DNA of 32,000 bases from Nostoc sp. PCC 7120 = FACHB-418 (GCF_000009705.1 NC_003267.1:60001-92000); one strand, 5' to 3'; counted from the stretch's first letter, positions 5,522-32,000 are shown. Notes: generated from the sequence alone by a model not told the origin. A program made the numbers and translations.

Positions 5522-8500
5522 TTATCTCCACCATCGTGACACATCCTGAATAGCAGAAGCTGTATCTTTCATTGCTTGTTTACCACCTAAAGTAAATATC
5601 ACAGGAGTTAATGCATTTATATCACTCAGTAAATTTGGGCGAGTGTGAATAGATAAAATGTTCAAAGTATCTCGCCAGAGATCAAAAAGTGGAGTTTTTT
5701 GTATTTGTGAAAGTTTATCAGCCAAACTACTTATGGCATAGGCGCGCTTATGCGTAGACTGAATCTCCCTAGCAGCAGCCAGTGCCTCACTTAACAATTC
5801 AGGTGGCAGTAGAGTAGCCAAACTACTTAGAGTGTTGGCGCGATACTCCTCATTCTGAATCTCCCTAGCAGCAGCCAGTACCTCACTTAACAATTCAGGT
5901 GGCAGTAGAGGAGCCAAACTACTGAGGGCGTTGGTGCGATACTCCTCATTCTGAATCTCCTTAGCAGCAGCAAGTGCCTCACTTAACAATTCAGGTGGTA
6001 GTAGAGGAGCCAGACGGCTTAGGGCTTTGGCGCGATAATACTCATCCTGAATCTCCTCAGCAGCAGCTAGTGCCTCACTTAACAACTCTGGTAAGTTATC
6101 AGCCAAACTACTTAGGGTTTTGGCGCGATAATACTCATCCTGAATCTCCCTAGCAGCAGCTAGTGCCTCACTTAACAATTCAGGTGGTAGTAGAGGAGCC
6201 AGACGGCTTAGGGCTTTGGCGCGATAATACTCATCCTGAATCTCCTTAGCAGCAGCAAGTGCCTCACTTAACAATTCAGGTAGCAGTAGAGGAGCCAAAC
6301 TACGTAGGGCTTTGGCGCGATAATACTCATCCTGAATCTCCTTAGCAGCAGCAAGTGCCTCACTTAACAACTCTGGCAACTTATCAGCCAAACTACATAG
6401 GGCTTTGGCGCGATAATACTCATCCTGAATCTCCTTAGCAGCAGCAAGTGCCTCACTTAACAACTCTGGCAACTTATCAGCCAAACTACGTAGGGCATAG
6501 GCACGATAATACTCATCCTGCATCTCCCTAGCAGCAGCAAGTGCCTCTGGTAACAACTTTGGCAGTAGAGGAGCCAGACGGCTTAGGGCTTTGGCGCGAT
6601 AATACTCATCCTGAATCTCCTTAGCAGCAGCAAGTGCCTCACTTAACAATTCAGGTAGCAGTAGAGGAGCCAAACGGCTTAGGGCTAAAGCGCGATCATA
6701 CTCAGACTGAATCTCCTTAGCAGCAGCAAGTGCCTCTGGCAACAACTTTGGCAGTAGAAGAGCCAAACTACTGAGGGCTAAAGCGCGATACTCCTCATTC
6801 TGAATCTCCCTAGCAGCAGCCAGTACCTTACTTAACAATTCAGGTGGCAATTTATTAGGCAAACTACTTAGAGTGTTGGCGCGATACTCCTCATTCTGAA
6901 TCTCCCTAGCAGCAGCCAGTACCTCACTTAACAATTCAGGTGGCAATTTATTAGGCAAACTACTTAGAGTGTTGGCGCGATACTCCTCATTCTGAATCTC
7001 CCTAGCAGCAGCCAGTACCTCACTTAACAATTCAGGTGGCAGTAGAGGAGCCAAACTACTGAGGGCTAAAGCGCGATACTCTTCATCCTGAATCTGCCTA
7101 GCAGCAGCCAGTGCCTCACTTAACAATTCAGGTGGCAGTAGAAGAGCCAAACGGCTTAGGGCTAAAGCGCGATCATACTCATACTGAATCTCTCTAGCAG
7201 CAGCCAGTGCCTCTGGTAACAACTCTGGCAACTTACCAGCCCAACTACTTAGGGTTTTGGCGCGATAATACTCATCCTTAATCTGCCTAGCAGCAGCCAG
7301 TGCCTCACTTAACAATTCAGGTGGCAGTAGAGGAGCCAAACGGCTTAGGGCTAAAGCGCGATCATACTCAGACTGAATCTCTCTAGCAGCAGCAAGTGCT
7401 TCTGGCAACAACTCTGGCAGTAGAAGAGCTAAACTACTTAGAGCGTTGGCACGATTTGACTCATCCTGAAACTCCCTAGCAGCAGCCAGTGCCTCACTTA
7501 ACAATTCAGGTGGTAGTAGAGGAGCCAGACGGCTTAGGGCTTTGGCGCGATAATACTCAGACTGAAACTCCCTAGCAGCAACCAGTGCCTCACTTAACAA
7601 TTCAGCAGGCAGTAGAGGAGCTAAACTACTTAGAGCGTTGGCACGATTTGACTCATCCTGAAACTCCCTAGCAGCAGCCAGTGCCTCACTTAACAATTCA
7701 GGTGGTAGTAGAGGAGCCAAATTACTTAAAGCATAGGCGCGACCCTCCTCATCCTGAATCTCCCTAGTAGCAGCCAGTGCCTCTGGCAACAACTCTGGCA
7801 GTAGAGGAGCCAAACTACTTAGGGCTTTGGCGCGATAATACTCATCCTGAAACTCCTTAGCAGCAACCAGTGCCTCTGGCAACAACTCTGGTATTAGAGG
7901 AGCCAAACTACTTAAAGCATAGGCACGACCCTCCTCATCCTGAATCTCCCTAACAGCAGCCAGTGCCTCTGGCAACAACTCTGGCATTAGAGGAGCCAAA
8001 CTACTTAGGGCTTTGGCACGCTTATACTCATCCTGAATTTCCCTAGCAGCAGCCAGTGCCTCTGGCAACAACTCTGGCAGTAGAGGAGACAAACTACTTA
8101 GAGATCTGACGCGATTTGACTCATCCTGAATCTCCCTAGCAGTAGCCAGTGCCTTACTTAATAATTCAGGTGGCAGTAAAGGAGTTAAACTACTTAGGGC
8201 ATAGGCACGCTCTAACTCAGCTTGAATCTCCCTAGCAGCAGCAAGTGCCTCACTTAAAAACTCAGGTAGCAGTAGAGGAGCCAAACTACTTAGGGCGTTG
8301 GCGCGATTTGACTCATCCTGAATCTCCCTAGCAGCAGCCAATGCTTTCCTTAGCCCTAATTCTTTTAGGTTTGGTGGCAAATGATTGACTAGCTGTGTAA
8401 GCAAGTAGGCTTTATTTTCTGGGTTCGAGCTTTGTAGCACGTAAGCGAGTCCTTGCTGGGGAGTCCAGACATTTTTTTGAACTAACGCAATCAACAGTTG

Positions 8501-9967
8501 GGCTGGTAAATTAGCTGCCAGACTATTAAGGGATGCAATAATCAAAGCATAGCGACATTGCATCCCAATGACTTCAGGTAGGGATGTAAGAGTCCAGGAG
8601 CCTTCTGCCGATTGCCAAGCACGAGCAATATCAGTTACAAAATTGGCAGTTTGCCCCAAGCTCGCGCACGCTTCATACCAACCATTACCGCCTGCTGAAG
8701 TTTCCTCTTGTAAAAGTTGATGTATCTGATTTAATTGGTTCGCTTGCTGGAAATGCCAAGTTAAATGAGCATGAATATAATCATCAGCAGGTAATGTATG
8801 CCATTGCCCTGATTGAGTTTTTTCTTGATAACGGTCTAATAACGCCGAATGAGCAACAGTCAAACTGAATCCCAGTCCTGGTAGTTTTCCTGGTTGATTA
8901 GGAACTTTCTCTCCTATAAGTAATCCAATAGCTACATCGTGCATTAAGTCATGTAGCCTGTAAGTTGGTTTTTTGTCAAACTGTATTGTTCCCGTTTGCA
9001 GTAATGCTTTAGACCGTAATTGACGTAATATTGTCAAAGCTTGTCTAGGATTAACACCCCAAAGCGTTGCCGCCATTGCATGGGTAATAACCACATCTTC
9101 TGGTAAAACTCCAAACCAAGCAAATTGTTGTAATAATTCTGGAGTTAAAGAATTCAAGCTGAGATTAAAAGAAGCTACCAGAGAATACTTTTTGCGCTTT
9201 TCTTCACTACTACAATCTACAAACAAGTCAAGTGTATCTAAATGAGCTATTTCTGCCTTTAAATCTTTTAGCAATTCTTCCCAGGCTATTCCATCTGCTC
9301 GCTGCGCTGCTGCCAATTCTAACGCTAAGGGTAAATAACCAACCGTTTCTGCTAAAAGTTCCGCCTGCTGTTTTTCTGCTTGGGTAAATTGCTTCAGATG
9401 TGGTTGACTTTCTAGAAGCTTTAGCGATTCGCTCTTTGTCATCACGTCCAGATCATAGCGGCTTGCCGCTAGTATCACAGCCTCTCGTGTAGTTACAAGT
9501 ACCCGACAACCAGCACCACCTACTTGAAAATATTCAACGTGTTCCGGATTCCAAGCGTCATCTACCACCAGCAAAACTTTCTTATCATAAAGTAAGGTCT
9601 GCAAGTGTCTTTTTGCATCATCTGATTGAATGGGTTTATAGTTATTGTCTCCTAAAGCCAGAATCCAACTACTTAATAATGGCAACAAATCAGGTTTTTG
9701 ACCTAAAGTAGCCCACAAAACCCCATCTTTAAAATAAGCTTGAACCTCATTATCATGGGCTATAGCCGCAGCTAATGTTGATTTACCAATTCCACCTAAT
9801 CCATAAATGGCACTAACAACTAAAGTTCCTTGACTATTTGTTTCTTGCCCCAGTAAAACTGCTTTTACTGCTTCATGGTGTAAGGGACGTTCTACAAAAT
9901 TAATTGGTAAAGGTGGTGCTTGGAAAGGTTTTTCTAACTTTACCCGTTCTCCAACGGGCGGCTGTAG
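5522..9967 (-). CDS. NB-ARC (AP-ATPase/STAND) NTPase with helical linker and 28 tandem HEAT/ARM-like repeats. The reading frame is open up to the in-frame TGA at 9968-9970 and has no canonical start before the P-loop.
   Basis: Motifs are P-loop GLGGIGKST (9776-9802), Walker B KKVLLVVDDAW, RVLVTTRE, GLPL motif GYLPLALELAAA and MHD motif RLHDLMHDVA. These are followed by 28 copies of EALAAAREIQDEYYRAKALSSLAPLLPPELLS. The track ORF (9718) starts at a TTG after the P-loop, but the frame is open upstream to 9967. Confidence 0.85.
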   Translation of the reverse strand, partial: LQPPVGERVKLEKPFQAPPLPINFVERPLHHEAVKAVLLGQETNSQGTLVVSAIYGLGGIGKSTLAAAIAHDNEVQAYFKDGVLWATLGQKPDLLPLLSSWILALGDNNYKPIQSDDAKRHLQTLLYDKKVLLVVDDAWNPEHVEYFQVGGAGCRVLVTTREAVILAASRYDLDVMTKSESLKLLESQPHLKQFTQAEKQQAELLAETVGYLPLALELAAAQRADGIAWEELLKDLKAEIAHLDTLDLFVDCSSEEKRKKYSLVASFNLSLNSLTPELLQQFAWFGVLPEDVVITHAMAATLWGVNPRQALTILRQLRSKALLQTGTIQFDKKPTYRLHDLMHDVAIGLLIGEKVPNQPGKLPGLGFSLTVAHSALLDRYQEKTQSGQWHTLPADDYIHAHLTWHFQQANQLNQIHQLLQEETSAGGNGWYEACASLGQTANFVTDIARAWQSAEGSWTLTSLPEVIGMQCRYALIIASLNSLAANLPAQLLIALVQKNVWTPQQGLAYVLQSSNPENKAYLLTQLVNHLPPNLKELGLRKALAAAREIQDESNRANALSSLAPLLLPEFLSEALAAAREIQAELERAYALSSLTPLLPPELLSKALATAREIQDESNRVRSLSSLSPLLPELLPEALAAAREIQDEYKRAKALSSLAPLMPELLPEALAAVREIQDEEGRAYALSSLAPLIPELLPEALVAAKEFQDEYYRAKALSSLAPLLPELLPEALAATREIQDEEGRAYALSNLAPLLPPELLSEALAAAREFQDESNRANALSSLAPLLPAELLSEALVAAREFQSEYYRAKALSRLAPLLPPELLSEALAAAREFQDESNRANALSSLALLLPELLPEALAAAREIQSEYDRALALSRLAPLLPPELLSEALAAARQIKDEYYRAKTLSSWAGKLPELLPEALAAAREIQYEYDRALALSRLALLLPPELLSEALAAARQIQDEEYRALALSSLAPLLPPELLSEVLAAAREIQNEEYRANTLSSLPNKLPPELLSEVLAAAREIQNEEYRANTLSSLPNKLPPELLSKVLAAAREIQNEEYRALALSSLALLLPKLLPEALAAAKEIQSEYDRALALSRLAPLLLPELLSEALAAAKEIQDEYYRAKALSRLAPLLPKLLPEALAAAREMQDEYYRAYALRSLADKLPELLSEALAAAKEIQDEYYRAKALCSLADKLPELLSEALAAAKEIQDEYYRAKALRSLAPLLLPELLSEALAAAKEIQDEYYRAKALSRLAPLLPPELLSEALAAAREIQDEYYRAKTLSSLADNLPELLSEALAAAEEIQDEYYRAKALSRLAPLLPPELLSEALAAAKEIQNEEYRTNALSSLAPLLPPELLSEVLAAAREIQNEEYRANTLSSLATLLPPELLSEALAAAREIQSTHKRAYAISSLADKLSQIQKTPLFDLWRDTLNILSIHTRPNLLSDINALTPVIFTLGGKQAMKDTASAIQDVSRWWR
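5711..8347 (-). repeat. Coding tandem repeat, 28 units of 93-96 bp (31-32 aa), many units near-identical at DNA level
   Basis: The period is visible directly. For example, tcctgaatctccttagcagcagcaagtgcctcacttaacaa recurs about every 94 bp, and 6841-6936 is essentially repeated at 6935-7030 (protein units 15 and 16 are identical). Confidence 0.9.
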
Positions 9968-10384
9968 TCAAGTATGGTAGTTATGAGTGTGATGACCACC
10001 GATGTTTGTTGTACCTTTTTCAGTCTCTACTTTAGTTTGGTAGCCCGTACTGTTGTCATAGTTATTTTGGGTCATGTTGCTGTTGTCTAACAGTTTTCCC
10101 ACATTAATCTCTTGCGCCAGTGCTTGTACCTGGGAAGCAAATTGTGGCTCGTCATCCATCACATCTTGTAAATAGACTGCTAGACGCTCTAACTCTGACT
10201 TATTTCCTTGTTCAACCGCAGTTAGTGCTTTTTCTGCTCTTGGATTACCTCGTAACTTATTCCAAATTTTCTGACGTAACTCATCCATCTTCACAAGGGC
10301 TGCTTCAGTGAATTTCTCTATTGTCGTCTCAAAAGCTTTAGTAAAAGCAAGAGTAACGATTACACCAGCAGTAAGTGGTTCCAT
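9968..10384 (-). CDS. N-terminal module of the NLR-like gene (138 aa): hydrophobic first helix, helical bundle and N/Q/G/T/H-rich tail. It ends at a TGA in frame with the NB-ARC ORF.
   Basis: ATG at 10384 is preceded by GAGG 6 nt upstream. Sequence runs MEPLTAGVIVTLAFTKAFETTIEKF...DNSNMTQNNYDNSTGYQTKVETEKGTTNIGGHHTHNYHT. The stop TGA at 9968-9970 is in the same frame as 5522..9967. Confidence 0.65.
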   Translation of the reverse strand: MEPLTAGVIVTLAFTKAFETTIEKFTEAALVKMDELRQKIWNKLRGNPRAEKALTAVEQGNKSELERLAVYLQDVMDDEPQFASQVQALAQEINVGKLLDNSNMTQNNYDNSTGYQTKVETEKGTTNIGGHHTHNYHT

Positions 10385-11076: not shown

Positions 11077-12443
11077 CAGAACAAATCGATTCTTTTGCTA
11101 ATACGTAAATTAGCTTATCTCTAATGAAATAACTGTTGTCTAAGGGTAAATTAGTTAACTATTTAGCCATGAGTAAGTAAGCTTATCCCTAAAAATAAGC
11201 AACAATCATAACTAAATTATTGATAGGCTAGTTTACGCTAAAGCTAGAACTCTTTCTAAATATTTATTGTCCATTGCTGCCAGAAACTGTTTATTTTTGA
11301 TTCCCCGTTTCACACGCTTCTCTTTACCTAAAAGATTTACTGCTATCTGCCGCATTACTGCAAAATTTTGTGGAGCATTATCTTTCCTAATCCGGCAGTC
11401 ATCTTCTTTTAAAGCTACATCTAATATCCAATGCAATGAATTTTCTATTCCCCAGTGACTGCGAACAGAATTAGCAAATTGTTTGGCATTATCTTCAAGA
11501 CTACTAATAAAATAACGAATCTCCACTGTTGTTTTAGCATCTACTTGCCGGACGGATTCTACCATCCCAATACTATTAAACTTTGACCAAGCTGAATCAG
11601 GGTCAAGTCGGGATTAGATTCCTGTTAACATCGCGTAGTTGCGGATTTCATGACGACCATGCCCATGTTCTTCTGTTTTGTATGTGCTATGTTGAAAATC
11701 TTGAAAACCTTTGCCTATCTCTGCTTTAAATAGTTGCTCTACTTCATCATACAGATTACCTTGATTCTTTTTGAGGGTAATTACATAATCTGCGTTTTGT
11801 TGGCTAATTAACTTCACAATCTCCTTCTGGCAACCGATGGCATCAATTGTCACAATACAACCAGATAGTTCTAATACTTTTATTAATTCGGGAATTGCTG
11901 TAATTTCATTTGATTTCTCATCCACCTTTACCTGCCCTAACACTAACTTATTTGTAGTTGCCCACGCACTTACCATTTGTATTGCACTTTGGTTACTGCT
12001 TCTATCATGGGAGCCACATAAAGTTTTGCCGTCAATTGCTACTACCTCACCATCCGTCCTGATCTTTATTGACTTTATCCAGTTTAAGAAACATGACTGA
12101 AATTGCTGTGAATCCAATTGTGCAAAGACTCGTGCAAATGTATCGTGTGATGGTATTCCATTTGGTAGCTCCAAAAACGTTTTCAACCACTCATATTTTG
12201 TGCAGCCATACAATTCAATTGCCACCCAACTGTCCGCTCCACATATCACTGCACATAAAGCAATGGTGAGAATGTCAATTAATTTGTGCCGTTTTGTCCG
12301 ATCTACTCTTGGATCTTCCATCTGTGCAAAGTGGTCAGTAATCGTGATTTTGGGCTTGAGCTTCATGAAGAGAGTGGTACGGTAGTTCTTCTTTTTTTCT
12401 CGCACTCTTGAATTTACTACAAAAATGAACCCACATTGCCCTG
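11077..12443 (-). mobile_element. ISAs1-family insertion sequence (ends tentative)
   Basis: It contains the ISAs1/H-repeat-type transposase. The right end ...cattgccctg (12443) gives the CAGGG terminus I recall for ISAs1. The imperfect partner is cagaacaaatcgattcttttgctaatacgtaaatt at 11077-11111, against cagggcaatgtgggttcatttttgtagtaaatt. No target duplication was found. Confidence 0.4.
11233..12366 (-). pseudogene. ISAs1-family (H-repeat-associated) DDE transposase, inactivated by one in-frame TAA
   Basis: Sequence reads MKLKPKITITDHFAQMEDPRVDRTKRHKLIDILTIALCAVICGADSW...IPSHDTFARVF, then RSHWGIENSLHWILDVALKEDDCRIRKDNAPQNFAVMRQIA. The two track ORFs (11614..12405 and 11233..11565) are in the same frame and are separated only by TAA at 11614-11616. 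Confidence 0.8.
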
Positions 12444-25721: not shown

Positions 25722-28700
25722 TTAGGGAGCAATAAAGACTTCACCGTCTTGGGTATTAGTTATCTGATTATCATTACTGATGGTTACATTAACACTACCA
25801 GAGCTAAAAATGGTAATACTAATACCATATCCCTGAATTTGATCAATTACATTGTTGGATAGTTCTACTGTTGAACCAGCAGCATCAAAAATTTCAAAGT
25901 TAATACCGTCAGTGAAATTGGCATCTCCAGCATCAGTATCCCTGATATTGCTAATTATGTTAGTAGCGATTTGGAAAGTAGCTGTACTAGTGCCATTGAG
26001 TTGGAAATTCATACCATCGCCATTGGTGATAGTATTGATAGTATTTCCAGCAGCAGTCACATTACCAGCCACCACATTATCAAAAGCTTGGAGGTTAATA
26101 CCTGATGATGTGATATCAGCATCTACCCCTGTAATTTGATTATTGTTGAGGCTAACACTGGTTAAGTTAGTATTTGCTCCTAACTGTACATCCATAGCAG
26201 TACCATTATTACTGATGGTGTTGTCATTAATTTGCAATGTGCCGATTGTATCAGATAAACTTACACGAATATCATTAAAGTTCTCCGTCAGTTGATTGCT
26301 ATTGACAGTTAAATTTGTTGTGCTTGAAGTGTTAGCGATCGCAATTCCATTATGATTGTTATTGCCATTAGCGATATTCTGGCTAACGCTGACTGTACCC
26401 GTCACTTCCGATAAGCTAATGCTTTCTTGTTGAGCATCAGTAATGGTATTGCTATCAACATTGATAGTCCCATTAGCATTTTCTACTTGAATACCTTGCT
26501 CACCTGCATTTGTAATGTTGTTATTAATAACTTGGGCATTATTGACACCGTTTAAATTGATGCCATCTCGAAAAGAATTACTAATGGTGTTCTGATCAAC
26601 AGTTACAATGATTGTATTATCTGGAGTTTTGTTGAAAGCATTAATGCCAGTTCCTTGAATATCAGAGATATTATTTCTGGCAATATTTACAGTTGTATTG
26701 ATATTAGTGTTGGAGTCAAAGTTATCAAAGAATTGTAAATCAATACCATTTCCTTCTGTAGTGATTTGAGAAATAGTATTATCTGTAATATCAATACTCC
26801 CAGCATTATCACCACCAGCAAACTGCATATAAATACCATTACCCACAGGAACTTGGGAAATGTTGTTATTGGCAACTGTAATCTCAGCTTTGGCATTATC
26901 AAATACTTCTACATTGATGCCTTCAGTAAAGTTGAAGTCTCCAGGATCAGTATCTTGAATATTGCTAATTGTGTTACCTGCAATATTGAATGTAGCTGTA
27001 CTGCTCCCATTGAGTTGGAAGTTCGTTCCATCCCCATTTGTCATATTGCTGATAGTATTATCGGAAACTTCAAAATCACCAATAGCAGCATTATCATAAG
27101 CCTGGAGATTGATACCTTGAGATGTAGTTGATGTAGCTGTACCTGTAATTTGGTTATTGTTAATAGTGGCGTTGGTGAGGTTGGTATTTTCTCCTAACTG
27201 CAAATCTATAGCAGTACCAGAATTCTCAATGATATTATTATTAATCTCGACTGTACCAGTCGTATTAGATAAACTCACACGAATGTCATTAAAGTTTTCT
27301 GTTAGTGTATTGCCATTGACTAAGAGATTGCTTTCACCTTGAATATTAGTAATTGTAATGCCATTATGATTGTTATTGCCATTAACAATATTCTGGCTAA
27401 CGCTGACTGTACCCGTCACTTCCGATAAGCTAATGCTTTCTTGTTGAGCATCAGTAATGGTATTGCTATCAACATTGATAGTCCCATTAGCATTTTCTAC
27501 TTGAATACCTTGCTCACCTGCATTTGTAATGTTGTTATTAATAACTTGGGCATTATTGACACCGTTTAAATTGATGCCATCTCCAGAAGAATTACTAATG
27601 GTGTTCTGATCAACAGTTACAATGATTGTATTATCTGGAGTTTCGTTGAAAGCATTAATGCCAGTTCCTTGAATATCAGAGATATTATTTCTGGCAATAT
27701 TTACAGTTGTATTGATATTAGTGTTGGAGTCAAAGTTATCAAAGAATTGTAAATCAATACCATTTCCTTCTGTAGTGATTTGAGAAATAGTATTATCTGT
27801 AATATCAATACTCCCAGCATTATCACCACCAGCAAACTGCATATAAATACCATTACCCACAGGAACTTGGGAAATGTTGTTATTGGCAACTGTAATCTCA
27901 GCTTTGGCATTATCAAATACTTCTACATTGATGCCTTCAGTAAAGTTGAAGTCTCCAGGATCAGTATCTTGAATATTGCTAATTGTGTTACCTGCAATAT
28001 TGAATGTAGCTGTACTGCTCCCATTGAGTTGGAAGTTCGTTCCATCCCCATTTGTCATATTGCTGATAGTATTATCGGAAACTTCAAAATCACCAATAGC
28101 AGCATTATCATAAGCCTGGAGATGGATACCTTGAGATGTAGTTGATGTAGCTGTACCTGTAATTTGGTTATTGTTAATAGTGGCGTTGGTGAGGTTGGTA
28201 TTTTCTACTAACTGCAAATCTATAGCTGTGCCATGATTGCTAATGATATTGTTGTTAATTTGTAACGTACCAGTGGTAGTAGATAAATCTACTCGAATAT
28301 CATTGAAGTTTTCCGACAAATTATTATTGGCAATTGTCAGATTTATATCACCTGTAGTATTAGCGATATCAATGCCTGTACTATTATTGCTACCATTAAT
28401 AGTGTTTTGATTAATAGTAGTTGTGCCTGTAACTTCGGTTAATTTTATAGCTTCTTGGTTATTATCAGTTAAGGTGTTATCACTAATATTTATCGTGCCA
28501 GTAGAGTTTTCTATGAAAATACCTCGATTACCTGAATTAGTAATACTATTGTTAGTAATTGTAGGTGAAATTACTTGAGATAGCTGTATGCCGTCTCCAG
28601 TTGTATTACTGATGGTATTATTAGTAATACTGCTTGTATCACTGACATTTGTGAGCAAGATGCCTGTACCAGTGATATTGTTGATCAAATTATTAGTAAT

Positions 28701-30185
28701 TTCAGTAGTGCTGACTTGAGATAGATTGATTGCATTACCAACAACATTGTTAATAGTATTGCTGTGAATGATGGTTGTTCCAGCAATATTTTCTAGATAA
28801 ATACCTTCTCCAAAAGGATTACTAATCTTATTATTGTCAATGATGACATTGCTAATATTAATACCCTGTATACCTCTTGCGCCCTCATTACCAGCAACTT
28901 GCAGATTAAATCCAGAAATCACGGAATTATTACCCAAAGTAATCAGTCCGTTTCCACTATTAACAGTTCCAGTAATTGTTGGATGTATCCCGCTACCGGA
29001 TAAAGGTAAAGTGACGATACCTAAACCCTTGACGTTAACTACTTGTACAGGGCTACTAGAGAATACGCGTACATCATTGGGAATTGTAAATGGTGGAAAG
29101 ACAGTATTTTCATCAGAACGGACATAAATTACATTGTCTGCTTTAGCTACCGCCAAAGCTTGAGCAATTGAGCCATAAGGTGATTCAAACGTACCGTTAC
29201 CAGTACCACCAGGAGCTACGTGAATAATGATTAATTGCTCACTATTATCAGTATTATTTGTAGGAGTATCAATACTATTCGTAGAACCTTCCTCCTCTGG
29301 TTCAACCATTGCTGCAAAAACATCCGTTCTATTTTCCACAGCAACTAGGATGGTAGCTTGATTGTCTACTGATTGCGCCATTCGTGTTAAAGCACTATTT
29401 TTAGATGGCTTACCTCTTCTTGCACCGCTACCAGGGAAATTAGCACCGATACTAAAAACTAGTCTCGTGTCAAATAAGTCATCATTTTGCAGAGACAGAC
29501 TGAAACCCAAAAAATCATTAGGACGAGCTTCTATTCTAGTTTTCCAGCCAAACGCCTCCCGTGATTCTCCGCCAGAGTAGTAGTACACGCCTGCATAACC
29601 CCGCAAGTCTCCACTACCCAGACTAGCTAGTCGTGTTCCAACTTCCGCATCGACACCGGACATAGCCACTTCTAAAAAGCGCGATCGCTGTACCATTAAG
29701 GAATCACCCTGAAAAAATGGCAGATTCGCCTGTTCAACTTGGTTTTCTGAACCATTCAAAGGAAGATAGGCGTTAAAACGAAAATCCCAAACACCTAAAG
29801 TTTCAAAACCCAATCCTAATTGATCAAAATTACTCTTTCCAGTATCACGAGTAGAGTAAGAGATATAACCACCAATGACACGATTAGCTTCTTCACTAAA
29901 AATTCGATGTCCTAATAAGATATTGGTAGCTAAATTTGAGTCATTGTCTAATAAAAGTTTGCCCTGTAGAAAAGTTAGACTATTTCCTGGTATTTGCAAA
30001 ACAGGCAAAAATCCCTCAAAACTACTAAAAGATTCATATCCTGCACCTTCAGTGGTGTAGCGTACTCCCACACGGGGTGTAAACACTTGTGCTGTCGTTG
30101 ATGCGGGTGTTTGAGCAGATACTGTAGAAGCAGAAACCAACACCCCTAAGAAAGCTATGTAGCCTAAATATTGCAGATTATTCAT
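25722..30185 (-). CDS. inverse-autotransporter-type outer-membrane protein with a right-handed parallel beta-helix (PbH1) repeat passenger; putative adhesin
   Basis: Signal peptide MNNLQYLGYIAFLGVLVSASTVSAQ (ATG at 30185 preferred to the track TTG at 30215). A beta-barrel region (GLGFETLGVWDFRFNAYLPL, GVDAEVGTRL, LRGYAGVYYYSG) resembles intimin/invasin beta-domains. About 1150 aa of N-x-I-S/T-N-x-x-G-x-G-I repeats follow. Confidence 0.75.
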   Translation of the reverse strand: MNNLQYLGYIAFLGVLVSASTVSAQTPASTTAQVFTPRVGVRYTTEGAGYESFSSFEGFLPVLQIPGNSLTFLQGKLLLDNDSNLATNILLGHRIFSEEANRVIGGYISYSTRDTGKSNFDQLGLGFETLGVWDFRFNAYLPLNGSENQVEQANLPFFQGDSLMVQRSRFLEVAMSGVDAEVGTRLASLGSGDLRGYAGVYYYSGGESREAFGWKTRIEARPNDFLGFSLSLQNDDLFDTRLVFSIGANFPGSGARRGKPSKNSALTRMAQSVDNQATILVAVENRTDVFAAMVEPEEEGSTNSIDTPTNNTDNSEQLIIIHVAPGGTGNGTFESPYGSIAQALAVAKADNVIYVRSDENTVFPPFTIPNDVRVFSSSPVQVVNVKGLGIVTLPLSGSGIHPTITGTVNSGNGLITLGNNSVISGFNLQVAGNEGARGIQGINISNVIIDNNKISNPFGEGIYLENIAGTTIIHSNTINNVVGNAINLSQVSTTEITNNLINNITGTGILLTNVSDTSSITNNTISNTTGDGIQLSQVISPTITNNSITNSGNRGIFIENSTGTINISDNTLTDNNQEAIKLTEVTGTTTINQNTINGSNNSTGIDIANTTGDINLTIANNNLSENFNDIRVDLSTTTGTLQINNNIISNHGTAIDLQLVENTNLTNATINNNQITGTATSTTSQGIHLQAYDNAAIGDFEVSDNTISNMTNGDGTNFQLNGSSTATFNIAGNTISNIQDTDPGDFNFTEGINVEVFDNAKAEITVANNNISQVPVGNGIYMQFAGGDNAGSIDITDNTISQITTEGNGIDLQFFDNFDSNTNINTTVNIARNNISDIQGTGINAFNETPDNTIIVTVDQNTISNSSGDGINLNGVNNAQVINNNITNAGEQGIQVENANGTINVDSNTITDAQQESISLSEVTGTVSVSQNIVNGNNNHNGITITNIQGESNLLVNGNTLTENFNDIRVSLSNTTGTVEINNNIIENSGTAIDLQLGENTNLTNATINNNQITGTATSTTSQGINLQAYDNAAIGDFEVSDNTISNMTNGDGTNFQLNGSSTATFNIAGNTISNIQDTDPGDFNFTEGINVEVFDNAKAEITVANNNISQVPVGNGIYMQFAGGDNAGSIDITDNTISQITTEGNGIDLQFFDNFDSNTNINTTVNIARNNISDIQGTGINAFNKTPDNTIIVTVDQNTISNSFRDGINLNGVNNAQVINNNITNAGEQGIQVENANGTINVDSNTITDAQQESISLSEVTGTVSVSQNIANGNNNHNGIAIANTSSTTNLTVNSNQLTENFNDIRVSLSDTIGTLQINDNTISNNGTAMDVQLGANTNLTSVSLNNNQITGVDADITSSGINLQAFDNVVAGNVTAAGNTINTITNGDGMNFQLNGTSTATFQIATNIISNIRDTDAGDANFTDGINFEIFDAAGSTVELSNNVIDQIQGYGISITIFSSGSVNVTISNDNQITNTQDGEVFIAP
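26347..28229 (-). repeat. Near-perfect 1014-bp (338-aa) tandem duplication inside the adhesin gene (about 1.86 units; a third, diverged unit flanks it)
   Basis: 26347-27215 equals 27361-28229 apart from a handful of substitutions (for example tctcgaaaag vs tctccagaag, gattgatacc vs gatggatacc). The track shows identical antisense ORFs offset by exactly 1014 bp (26687/27701 and 26766/27780). Confidence 0.9.
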
Positions 30186-30240
30186 TAGTAAACCCTGGTA
30201 AATCAATGAAGCCAAAAGTCGGAAGTTAGACTTTTTATGG

Positions 30241-30305: not shown

Positions 30306-32000
30306 TTAAACAAACCTACTGGTAGAATTTTTACGGCGAATCCCAATTACGCAAGGACGAGGAACACCTGTAGATTGTCCTAGTCCACCGTCGGCTGTGG
30401 GCATATTACTAGGCCAGCTACTACCACGCGGTACAGTGCGAGTCTGATTAAATGTAGTGCCGTTCAAATCCAACATTTCAATGCTGCGACTGAGTATCGT
30501 ACCATCGTTAATCGGGCAATCTTCCCCTGGGTGCTGCACAGAAACAATCAGAGTATCACCCAAAAAAGTTGGGCCTGTGATTTCACAACGAACTGGCCCA
30601 TAGCCAAAAGGTATGACTTTTCCAGCATCAGCCCCACTAGTAGGAATGTAAAATAGCCAGTTATTACCAAACACACCCGTAAAGTTGGAAACATTACCCG
30701 CAGCACTATGATTAATGGTGTTTTGATTACCAGACGCACCAACATTAAAACCGTTGTGGGTGCTGGTGGACATATCAGTTACACCCCAAACGTTACCTTG
30801 GTTGTCAAAAGCCAAGTTATCAACGTTAGCAAAACCCGCACCACCAATTGAACCAGCTTCCCCACCTTGAGCGAATTTTTGCCATGTAAAGGTTGTACCT
30901 GTACCATCGGCACTACCTTCAATAATTTTGTATAATCCGCCTGATTGTTGGGTAGCGTTGACATTACCGCTTAATTTGGCAACTTGGAAAATACGGGAAT
31001 CGGGATAACCATCACTACCAGGTGCGCCATCAGTATAGGCAATGAATACTTCTTTAGTTGTGGGGTGAACTTCGATGTCTTCAGGACGGGCGGTGGGAGT
31101 TCCCCCAACTAGATTAGCTGCGAGAAAGGCATCACAGAGAATAGCACCTTGGGAGGTGTAAAAATTCTGTAATGTCTTGTTCTGATAACCTGGAAGTGCA
31201 GTAGCTTCGTTGGTACGTGTACAGCTAAATGTACCACCATCAGTAGTTTGCCCAGCGATACCGTTACGTCTAGGTAAGGGTAAAAGACCGTTTCTTTGGG
31301 CTGAACCTAAAGCGGCAAATTCCACGGAGGAAAGGGTGGTGGGAGGAATAGGATTAGTAGGAGTAGTTAATAGTAGAGGTATCCATTCCCCTGTGCCATC
31401 TGGGTTGTATTTGGCAACGTAGAGAGTACCGTTTTCAAATAAAGCGCTATTGGTTTTACTGCTGATTGTGCCAACATTACCATTGCTGACAAATTTCCAG
31501 GTGTGTCCACCGCGTCTATCATCACCCAGGTAAGCAACTAATTTTTTACCTGCTTCTACCCGCATGGCAATGTTTTCATGACGATAACGACCTAACCAAG
31601 TATGCTTTTTAGGACGAAAATTAGGATTTACGGGGTCAATTTCTACCATCCAGCCGTATTTTTCGCCAACTAAACCGAAGGTTGTGCCTGTGGTTCCTGC
31701 TGTATAACCGACTTGTGTCCCATCTGGTTTAACGGCTTCTGTTACACCCATAAAAAATGGGCCACCGCCTTGAAAGTTTTCTTCCGCCGATAAGATAGTT
31801 CCCCAAGGGGTTGTACCACCAGAGCAGTTATAAGCAGTACCAATGATTTTGTTACCCAGTCCATCAGAACTGAGGTTAAATACTTGTGTAGCGGCTGGGC
31901 CAGTACCTTCTAAATAGTTTTGGTCGCCTTGTTGATAACTTCGTCCACCCCAAGCCGTGATACTCTGATATCCATCACTTCTTTGACTGTTGATGCCTAA
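30306..32000 (-). CDS. phoX: PhoX-family (DUF839 beta-propeller) alkaline phosphatase, partial (5' end outside the window)
   Basis: The frame is open from 31751 to the window edge (...NCSGGTTPWGTILSAEENFQGGGPFFMGV...). Motifs are NCxGGxTPWGT.L..EEN, VDNLAFDNQGNVWGVTD and IVSVQHPGE. The track ATG at 31751 is internal. Confidence 0.8.
   Translation of the reverse strand, partial: LGINSQRSDGYQSITAWGGRSYQQGDQNYLEGTGPAATQVFNLSSDGLGNKIIGTAYNCSGGTTPWGTILSAEENFQGGGPFFMGVTEAVKPDGTQVGYTAGTTGTTFGLVGEKYGWMVEIDPVNPNFRPKKHTWLGRYRHENIAMRVEAGKKLVAYLGDDRRGGHTWKFVSNGNVGTISSKTNSALFENGTLYVAKYNPDGTGEWIPLLLTTPTNPIPPTTLSSVEFAALGSAQRNGLLPLPRRNGIAGQTTDGGTFSCTRTNEATALPGYQNKTLQNFYTSQGAILCDAFLAANLVGGTPTARPEDIEVHPTTKEVFIAYTDGAPGSDGYPDSRIFQVAKLSGNVNATQQSGGLYKIIEGSADGTGTTFTWQKFAQGGEAGSIGGAGFANVDNLAFDNQGNVWGVTDMSTSTHNGFNVGASGNQNTINHSAAGNVSNFTGVFGNNWLFYIPTSGADAGKVIPFGYGPVRCEITGPTFLGDTLIVSVQHPGEDCPINDGTILSRSIEMLDLNGTTFNQTRTVPRGSSWPSNMPTADGGLGQSTGVPRPCVIGIRRKNSTSRFV

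Follow-up and report, generated by a model that had tools for sequence, protein, structure and literature searches.

The locus and its in-frame stop codon

We analysed a window of 32,000 nucleotides (nt) from Nostoc sp. PCC 7120 = FACHB-418 (NC_003267.1:60001-92000), in which a single in-frame TGA separates two open reading frames (ORFs): ORF1, coding for a small protein of 138 amino acids (aa) that we call the N-module, and ORF2, coding for a protein that resembles a NOD-like receptor (NLR), with an NB-ARC domain followed by repeats. All coordinates of the locus refer to the minus strand, and its features are collected in Table 1. The sequence-only reading of this DNA had described a TGA between the N-module and the NB-ARC, the lack of any start codon ahead of the P-loop, a C directly after the stop and a hairpin a few nt further on. 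Each of these was recovered. The TGA (9970-9968) follows a 138-codon ORF ending in HNYHT, the first in-frame ATG, GTG or TTG is the TTG of 9718-9716, located past the P-loop GLGGIGKST (9802-9776), and the base 3' of the stop is a C belonging to the codon CTA. The hairpin cccgtt-ggag-aacggg stands at 9958-9943, comprises 7 pairs when the flanking G and T are included, and is preceded by an 8-nt spacer. After the TGA the frame continues as LQPPVGERVKLEKPFQAPPLPINFVERP... and remains open for 1,481 codons, up to a stop at 5524-5522.

Gene callers place the start of the NLR either at an ATT located 64 nt past the TGA or at the TTG of 9718-9716. Between ORF1 and ORF2 we found no terminator-like site and no promoter-like site better than chance, and PADLOC matched neither the N-module nor the NLR part. 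A tRNA scan of the window and 26 loci revealed no linked suppressor or selenocysteine (Sec) tRNA. In one of the loci (L015, 5378-5468, minus strand) ARAGORN placed across the junction, on the opposite strand, a 'tRNA-???' whose anticodon has 4 bases; this call is probably spurious because it was made neither in L061, which carries the same element, nor in the near-identical L014.

Table 1. Features of the N-module/NLR locus in the window
Feature	Position	Strand	Remarks
ORF1, N-module of 138 aa (product on termination at TGA)	9971..10384	-	Start ATG 10384-10382; 138 codons, end ...GGHHTHNYHT
Helical globular domain, residues 1-97, hydrophobic N-terminus MEPLTAGVIVTLAF	10094..10384	-	AlphaFold2 model all-helical, predicted local distance difference test (pLDDT) 70-87
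Disordered G/N/Q-rich tail, residues 100-138, ...MTQNNYDNSTGYQTKVETEKGTTNIGGHHTHNYHT; putative amyloid signalling motif	9971..10087	-	pLDDT <50
In-frame TGA, proposed recoding (readthrough) site	9968..9970	-	Directly after ORF1
ORF2, NLR-like part of the proposed 1,620-aa readthrough product	5525..9967	-	1,481 codons, in the frame of ORF1
Spacer of 8 nt, CUACAGCC (+4 C and CUA codon included)	9960..9967	-	Length constant across junctions
Stem 1: GCCCG (9959-9955) with CGGGU (9946-9942), 8-nt loop UUGGAGAA	9942..9959	-	Extendable to a 7-pair hairpin
Candidate 3' arm of stem 2, UUCCAA, pairing with loop UUGGAG 9954-9949	9920..9925	-	Flexible pseudoknot finder
ATT forced as start of the NB-ARC gene in NCBI annotation (MNFVERP...)	9902..9904	-	Sequence P0001; gene calls L002/L003/L005
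NB-ARC NTPase domain	9257..9874	-	Pfam PF00931, E=2.4e-21; weak APAF1_C match too
First in-frame ATG/GTG/TTG past the TGA (TTG)	9716..9718	-	84 codons past the stop, downstream of the P-loop
Tandem array, 27.7 copies of a 96-nt (32-aa) helical repeat (LPELLSEALAAAREIQDEYYRAKALSSLA...), presumed sensor	5720..8344	-	Repeats not TPR or WD

Conservation of the junction among relatives

For the comparison with relatives, 80 loci were fetched from species-representative genomes and analysed by script. About 61 distinct junctions, from many cyanobacterial genera, were collected and 59 of them were tabulated. Two classes of loci were distinguished. Class A, to which the window belongs, accounts for about 35 of the 80 loci. 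There, the stop is followed by a C and, in frame, by the sequence L(Q/E)(S/P)(S/P)x(G/R)ER(A/T/V)K(L)NP; frame 0 stays open for hundreds of codons, the P-loop lies near codon 51, and there is neither room for nor trace of a second motif. The partners joined in this way vary on both sides of the junction, with several N-module families and pre-stop motifs upstream, and NB-ARC/TPR proteins, other P-loop clades or even non-NTPase domains downstream.

Class B is the classic two-gene pair. Its ORF1 ends with TAG-T, TGA-A or TAA, mostly followed by a short spacer that contains stops, and its NLR starts at an ATG of its own and carries a separate copy of the effector C-terminal motif, the P-loop being at codon 72-83 or later. 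In L025, for example, the effector ends with NQDNAKGWQTKVEGGTVYQGEINIHH and the NLR starts with MNQSNQDNSQGWQNQVGGGTVYQGEINFYN; L044, L045, L049/50, L060 and L073 are built alike. In four class-B loci (L036, L045, L079 and L082), the NLR starts 3-15 nt past the stop, in frame 0 and with no stop between. Low-level readthrough would also yield a fusion in these four loci, which may mark an evolutionary route between the two architectures. In addition, the pre-stop motif of the L100 junction matches the N-terminal motifs of two-gene-type NLRs.

The stop codon of the 59 tabulated junctions is TGA in 56 cases, TAG in 2 and TAA in 1. It is followed by a C in 54 of them, and the codon that comes next reads CUA in 32 cases and CUG in 20; the base 5' of the stop is a pyrimidine in 53 out of 54 junctions. 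By comparison, TGA-C represents 3.1% of the stops among 392 long ORFs of the same loci. The median extension of frame 0 past the stop is 598 codons, against medians of 10 and 14 and maxima of 79 and 99 codons in the two other frames. The sequence-only reading had raised the question of whether orthologues keep the TGA and the hairpin or carry a sense codon instead. The stop is conserved and not replaced by sense codons, about 61 distinct junctions having a stop against one natural GAG variant (L125), and the structure that follows it is conserved across genera.

A different downstream partner was observed in Iphinoe sp. HA4291-MV1 (L012/L014), where the class-A junction (L014, 5415) precedes a non-NTPase ORF of about 154 codons and of unknown function. 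TPR-like remnants are present farther downstream in L014, and the system is possibly truncated or rearranged.

A covarying pseudoknot at a fixed distance from the stop

From 5' to 3', the layout common to the family consists of the stop, usually UGA, an 8-nt spacer, typically CUACAGUC, the 5' arm of stem 1 (G[CU]C[CGA]G), a loop of 8-9 nt (NNN-GGGGA-A), the 3' arm of stem 1 complementary to the 5' arm, loop 3 (AAAGUUAAA) and, paired with the loop, the 3' arm of stem 2 (UCCCC). Stem 1 has 5 base pairs (bp), the 3' arm of stem 2 lies 9 nt downstream of stem 1, and the spacer measures 8 nt in all junctions. The element is a compact H-type pseudoknot, both stems of which covary. Stem 1 occurs as GCCCG/CGGGC, GUCCG/CGGAC, GUCGG/CCGAC, GUCAG/CUGAC, GCCUG/CAGGU and GCUGG/CCGGU, and stem 2 as GGGGA/UCCCC, CGGCA/UGCCG, CCGGA/UCCGG, GCGGA/UCCGC and GCGA/UCGC.

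In an ungapped alignment of 33 sequences, 98.7% of the cells were paired, against 16-55% when the partner was slid. Four pairs of this alignment are changed on both sides, and its covariation score was reached by 0 of 500 shuffles. When the window was included, in a MAFFT alignment, 93.3% of the cells were paired. With a permissive finder, 54 of 56 junctions yielded stem 1 together with stem 2, whereas shuffled sequences did so in 18% of cases. We also scanned metagenomes with a pattern beginning at stem 1 and thus independent of the stop: a TGA was located exactly 8 nt upstream in 27 of 27 matches, and CT[AG] followed it in 25 of the 27. An ORF of 134-187 codons precedes these matches except at contig ends, and a long frame-0 ORF follows most of them. 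Finally, when a covariance model was run on 118 sources, class-A junctions were its only matches. Those outside the training set (L022, L087 and second junctions in L067 and L100) all have the TGA.

No Rfam family, SECIS (selenocysteine insertion sequence) included, matched the surroundings of the junction at E<=10. A third helix, between UGACU and loop 3, was considered and dropped as it is not kept in the L051-L055 group.

Selection on frame 0 past the stop

In the stretch between the pseudoknot and the P-loop, the differences between sequences concentrate at third codon positions, with a ratio of nonsynonymous to synonymous substitution rates (dN/dS) of 0.22-0.29. When the calculation was restricted to codons upstream of the first ATG, GTG or TTG in either sequence, dN/dS was 0.31 (59 pairs).

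The pseudoknot itself is read in two registers. With an 8-nt loop it encodes ..ERERAKLNPP.., and with a 9-nt loop ..GTGKVKSP... In L070 (5418-5474), one extra base in the loop is compensated by a deletion a few codons later. L123 (1234-1290) has a 9-nt loop as in L070 and the same shifted register, and its ORF of 853 codons is intact. The RNA pairs and the overall frame are thus kept while the peptide changes, so that constraint acts on the RNA as such, and selection also on the continuity of the frame from the stop onward.

Natural derivatives of the junction

Sequences in which the stop is no longer present were also recovered. P0024 (990 aa, three contigs) is an all-in-one fusion in which the motif and the stop were deleted together, leaving a pseudoknot remnant with indels. 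This remnant (L119, 851-905) is in the second register and decayed, with a covariance score of 28 bits. The short proteins P0243 and P0244 are apparent deletion derivatives as well, their MEP... start being joined to the linker encoded by the pseudoknot (MEPPERERVKLNPP... and MEPLTAGAIAVGTIVGVKLNPP..., respectively). P0314 (L125, 1001-2182) is the only sense-codon variant found: it has GAG at the position of the stop and a largely intact pseudoknot, and it fuses the N-module and its motif to a transmembrane/GUN4-domain protein and not to an NLR. An apparent Trp at the stop position of P0393 (L124) was discarded since the DNA reads TGA, which the gene caller had bridged by using a TGA=Trp code. 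A search for sense variants with a junction-spanning protein query returned two-gene-type NLR N-termini and deletion derivatives only.

The N-module and its family

The ORF1 family was found to contain 283 clusters at 90% identity, made of cyanobacterial proteins of about 134-150 aa; among the best 120 listed, nearly all have 134-150 aa. With 50% clustering, 271 family representatives were obtained at E<=1e-10, and most of those listed are short too. Two stretches are conserved in the family alignment, MEP(L/V)T..I.TLAF.K at the N-terminus and the motif MTQNNYDN(S/A)xG(Y/W)QTKVEGGTxYIG at the C-terminus. The C-terminal motif of ORF1 aligns collinearly with a motif at the N-terminus of P0016, a homologous NLR, and some ORF1 homologues are named 'NACHT-NTPase and P-loop NTPases N-terminal domain' in UniRef.

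A MEPIS motif has been described at the N-terminus of Bell, Hell and Bab domains (bioRxiv 10.1101/2024.11.07.622273), and the 'MEP..' of ORF1 (MEPLTAG...) resembles it. Comparison of the N-module model with the PDB by Foldseek gave a best E-value of 1.4, so that no fold match was significant. Pfam searches with the N-module, five N-module types and two homologues gave no hit above cutoff, the DUF7607 match (E=0.0012) being below its own cutoff. By its architecture, the N-module would be a Bell-type effector carrying a C-terminal amyloid signalling motif (BASS), and it is Bell/HeLo-like in this architectural sense only.

The NLR, its strain variants and its neighbourhood

The length called for the NLR varies among otherwise near-identical strains: it is either 1460 or 1492 aa when the ATT is taken as start, and 1366 aa in L004 against 1398 aa in the window when the TTG is. 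These sequences suggest that the differences are a repeat copy-number polymorphism in the presumed sensor region. The NLRs of L122 (Nostoc linckia) and L123 are 85-90% identical to that of the window and possess the canonical stop and pseudoknot; they follow N-modules different from the window's, and their ORFs have 1,032 and 853 codons, respectively. Class-A NLRs are systematically mis-annotated (L013, L015, L122, L123 and others), the gene being made to start at a forced ATT, at a TTG inside the reading frame or at the Met within GMGGVGKTE.

The exact 138-aa protein (P0121), and with it the stop, recurs in at least 10 assemblies. They represent Anabaena/Nostocaceae strains as well as metagenomes and originate from different projects and platforms; among them are the closed plasmids CP183476.1, CP183820.1 and AP018218.1. 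The junction is not represented among PLSDB plasmids, and no copy of the element was found in viral contigs. A draft assembly of A. cylindrica FACHB (L001) was aligned with the window and showed 100% identity across the junction. In this assembly (7320-7532, corresponding to about 8640 in the window), the NLR is broken after ...SWTLTS by an IS200/IS605-type element. The TnpB-like ORF of this insertion begins with MLVFETKLEGTNEQYQLLDEAIKTARFVRNACLR, and the contig ends within it.

About 850 nt upstream of the N-module, the window contains two adjacent ORFs of 110 and 263 aa (11233-12405, minus strand), which match by position the two DDE_Tnp_1 transposase genes of L004, L007 and L008. Farther away on the same strand, a right-handed beta-helix protein of 1,497 aa and a PhoX alkaline phosphatase (25722-30215 and 30306-31751) are unrelated to the present finding.

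Probable programmed readthrough and competing explanations

The locus is probably translated as one unit whose stop is leaky by design, through programmed stop-codon readthrough. The conserved stop, its context, the constant spacer and the covarying pseudoknot argue for this explanation, which the sequence-only reading had listed first. Beyond the window, it seems rather likely that a widespread gene family of filamentous cyanobacteria uses pseudoknot-stimulated readthrough to produce an abundant amyloid-motif effector and a rare effector-NLR fusion. This would constitute a third NLR architecture, intermediate between two-gene amyloid pairs and all-in-one NLRs, and the first structured readthrough signal known from non-phage genes to act on bacterial ribosomes.

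Several points weigh against readthrough, either in general or in the window. To our knowledge, structure-stimulated stop readthrough has not been demonstrated for any bacterial cellular gene, and both readthrough and its efficiency are inferred here from sequences. About half of the junctions have an in-frame GTG, TTG or ATG more than 15 codons before the P-loop, so that independent initiation may occur at individual loci. The insertion element inside the NLR of one strain implies that the gene is dispensable in culture. The assignment of the N-module to the Bell family follows from architecture, without significant sequence or fold match. Finally, the window's own element is atypical. Its match to the covariance model (R1, 9929-9961) reaches 20 bits (E=0.029), whereas canonical copies obtain 45-62 bits. 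The canonical 3' arm of stem 2 is replaced by coding sequence of the window's NLR clade (..EKPFQAPPLP), and the candidate stem 2 competes with the extended 7-pair hairpin. This variant stem 2 is weakly supported because no more than three sequences share it (the window, L068 and L081). The hairpin of the window is not exceptional energetically, with an RNAfold z of -0.56 versus shuffles; its significance comes from the comparative data only, and single-sequence folding energy was given no weight of its own.

An ordinary two-gene operon, in which the NLR is initiated independently at the ATT of 9904, at the TTG of 9718 or at the CUA/CUG beside the stop, while the RNA serves coupling, mRNA stability or pausing, appears unlikely. 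NCBI and other gene callers annotate the locus in this manner, but the window offers no ATG, GTG or TTG ahead of the P-loop, and dN/dS is low in frame 0 upstream of every canonical start, as described above. Such codons, which in some loci exist by chance, do occur well ahead of the P-loop in about half of the junctions, and the purine-rich loop (GGAG/GGGGA) resembles a Shine-Dalgarno sequence; however, no fixed position carries a conserved start codon or Shine-Dalgarno-to-start spacing. Virtually all junctions preserve the frame set by the stop, with indels of the element compensated, and an exact 8-nt spacing between stop and structure would be purposeless for downstream initiation. Class-A NLRs also lack the N-terminal motif that independently initiated relatives possess.

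The comparative data suggest that the copy of the window may be less efficient or decaying. In this rival reading, the family would read through while this copy, its 3' arm lost by recombination with another NLR clade, would yield little or no full-length protein and its NLR would be becoming a pseudogene. The low covariance-model score, the replaced stem 2, the IS605-type insertion in the NLR of the sister strain and the IS (insertion sequence) elements nearby point in this direction. We nevertheless hold this reading to be quite improbable: the frame of 1,481 codons contains no stop, UGA-CUA, the spacer and stem 1 are kept, stem 1 being even extended to 7 pairs, and the variant is retained in two other species (L068, with an ORF of 1,432 codons, and L081).

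That the UGA encodes selenocysteine, with the hairpin as SECIS, is very improbable. A UGA with a hairpin a few nt downstream would fit, but the element also follows TAA (L057) and TAG (L069 and L083) with long ORFs intact, Rfam SECIS models do not match, the structure differs from a SelB-type hairpin in being a covarying pseudoknot whose loop varies, and the site lies in a linker and not in a redox motif. Consistently, the Sec trait was undetected in Cyanobacteria (PMC1794560), the present genomes not having been scanned for selA/B/C.

That the TGA arose by faulty sequencing or assembly, or as a nonsense mutation recently acquired by one strain, has a negligible probability and nothing in its favour except the in-frame stop itself, given the identical junction in at least 10 independent assemblies, one of them aligned at 100% identity, and a stop at the same position in about 60 junctions of many genera. 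The other options of the sequence-only reading did not hold either. A very recent pseudogene is ruled out as a general explanation by the stop, context and pseudoknot of about 60 junctions and by purifying selection on the downstream frame, and phase variation has no substrate at the site, where neither a repeat nor a homopolymer is present.

Three other recoding or editing processes were considered and dropped. A -1 or +1 frameshift was rejected as there is no X XXY YYZ heptamer ahead of the stop and the shifted frames close at a median of 10-14 codons. Ribosome hopping was set aside since the open frame goes on unshifted (frame 0), the two others being closed. A-to-I editing of the UGA was not retained, the TadA-like UACG loop not being at the site.

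Proposed mode of action

The sequences directly show a single frame, a conserved stop in the weakest of bacterial contexts, a structure conserved at the canonical distance and a continuation that is coding. One mRNA carries ORF1, with its helical Bell-like domain and G/N/Q-rich motif, and, in the same frame, the NB-ARC/repeat ORF. According to the readthrough model, most ribosomes would terminate at the UGA (9970-9968) and release the free 138-aa protein. A minority would decode the UGA by a near-cognate tRNA, most likely that of Trp, and produce the 1,620-aa N-module-motif-NB-ARC-repeat fusion to which comparative genomics points. Readthrough by a minority of ribosomes would be expected because UGA-C(UA) is a weak context for release factor 2 (RF2) and because structured RNA 8 nt downstream would stand at the mRNA entry channel. 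The stimulator would be the H-type pseudoknot in most members and, in the window, a hairpin of 5-7 pairs, its second stem being doubtful.

By analogy with Bell/BASS-NLR, HET-S/NWD2 and Bab/Agp, the repeats would sense a trigger, the NB-ARC would oligomerise and the N-terminal motifs would be clustered. The clustered motifs would then seed an amyloid fold, onto which the free 138-aa proteins, present in abundance, would be templated. The helical domains of these proteins would attack the membrane, leading to cell death or abortive infection. Readthrough in place of a second gene would provide the sensor with an identical effector motif and fix a high effector:sensor ratio.

If this model is true, dozens of cyanobacterial genes would form a natural bacterial model for structure-stimulated readthrough, and the production of many cyanobacterial NLRs seemingly devoid of a start codon would be explained. 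It would also represent a new way of coupling effector and sensor, by an identical motif and a fixed stoichiometry. Finally, the two-gene and all-in-one architectures would be linked by simple mutational steps, deletion and sense-codon derivatives having both been seen here.

Comparison with known systems

The system would combine two known kinds, programmed readthrough and NLR/amyloid effector pairs. Programmed readthrough is textbook knowledge in virology and has by now gained acceptance for animals, whereas no 3' RNA stimulator of it is known in cellular genes of bacteria. Recoding signals are known in cellular genes of E. coli, with a weak UGA-C context in prfB, which codes for RF2 (CUU UGA CUA), and a downstream structure in dnaX (tau/gamma). 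As in these two genes, recoding would serve here in a bacterial cell for two products or regulation. Unlike them, where the ribosome shifts by +1 or -1, translation would continue in frame 0.

The gag-pol junction of murine leukaemia virus (MuLV) associates a leaky stop, an 8-nt spacer and an H-type pseudoknot, and it gives an abundant short product and a rare extended one. The present junctions have the same spacer length and type of pseudoknot, and their stop would likewise be leaky and give two such products, in a fixed ratio set by the RNA (PMC7026636, PMC13517186). They differ from MuLV, which has UAG-G, eukaryotic ribosomes and eRF1, by UGA-CUA/CUG, bacterial ribosomes and a location in chromosomal or plasmid genes. 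Their pseudoknot is also smaller (5 bp + 4-5 bp, with an A-rich 9-nt loop 3), nearer in size to luteovirus frameshift pseudoknots, and unrelated in sequence to that of MuLV.

On bacterial ribosomes, the UGA of phage Q-beta is read through at 3-5% in E. coli (PMC13517186). As for the Q-beta coat/A1 proteins, reading of a UGA by bacterial ribosomes at a few percent would yield a minor extended protein needed beside the major one (PMC7026636, PMC13517186); unlike the present junctions, coat/A1 belongs to a phage, is not known to need a downstream pseudoknot and serves an unrelated biology. A C at position +4 and UGA-CUA favour readthrough (PMC7026636), and stimulatory structures are typically located at least 8 nt past the stop (PMC13517186). 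For readthrough in bacterial cellular genes, essentially one example is given in a review, SacB of B. subtilis (PMC7026636).

As regards the encoded proteins, the arrangement seen here in filamentous cyanobacteria, in which a small, predicted helical effector with a C-terminal G/N/Q-rich motif adjoins an NB-ARC protein with repeats, resembles Bell/BASS-NLR pairs (Dyrka et al., bioRxiv 10.1101/2020.01.06.895854), fungal HET-S/NWD2 and E. coli Bab/Agp (bioRxiv 10.1101/2024.11.07.622273). Members of the ORF1 family form such two-gene pairs with matching motifs in relatives. Unlike in Bell/BASS pairs, the NLR of the window has neither its own start nor its own motif, and the sole copy of the motif is upstream of the in-frame stop. 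In searches of open-access papers and bioRxiv, the Bell/BASS reports included, we met no earlier description of a pseudoknot, an in-frame stop or readthrough in these systems. The architecture of the proposed readthrough product is that of an all-in-one effector-NOD-repeat NLR, and P0024 is a true all-in-one derivative within the ORF1 family. The all-in-one form has no stop, and P0024 has no amyloid motif either, whereas in the window the stop is conserved and two products are expected.

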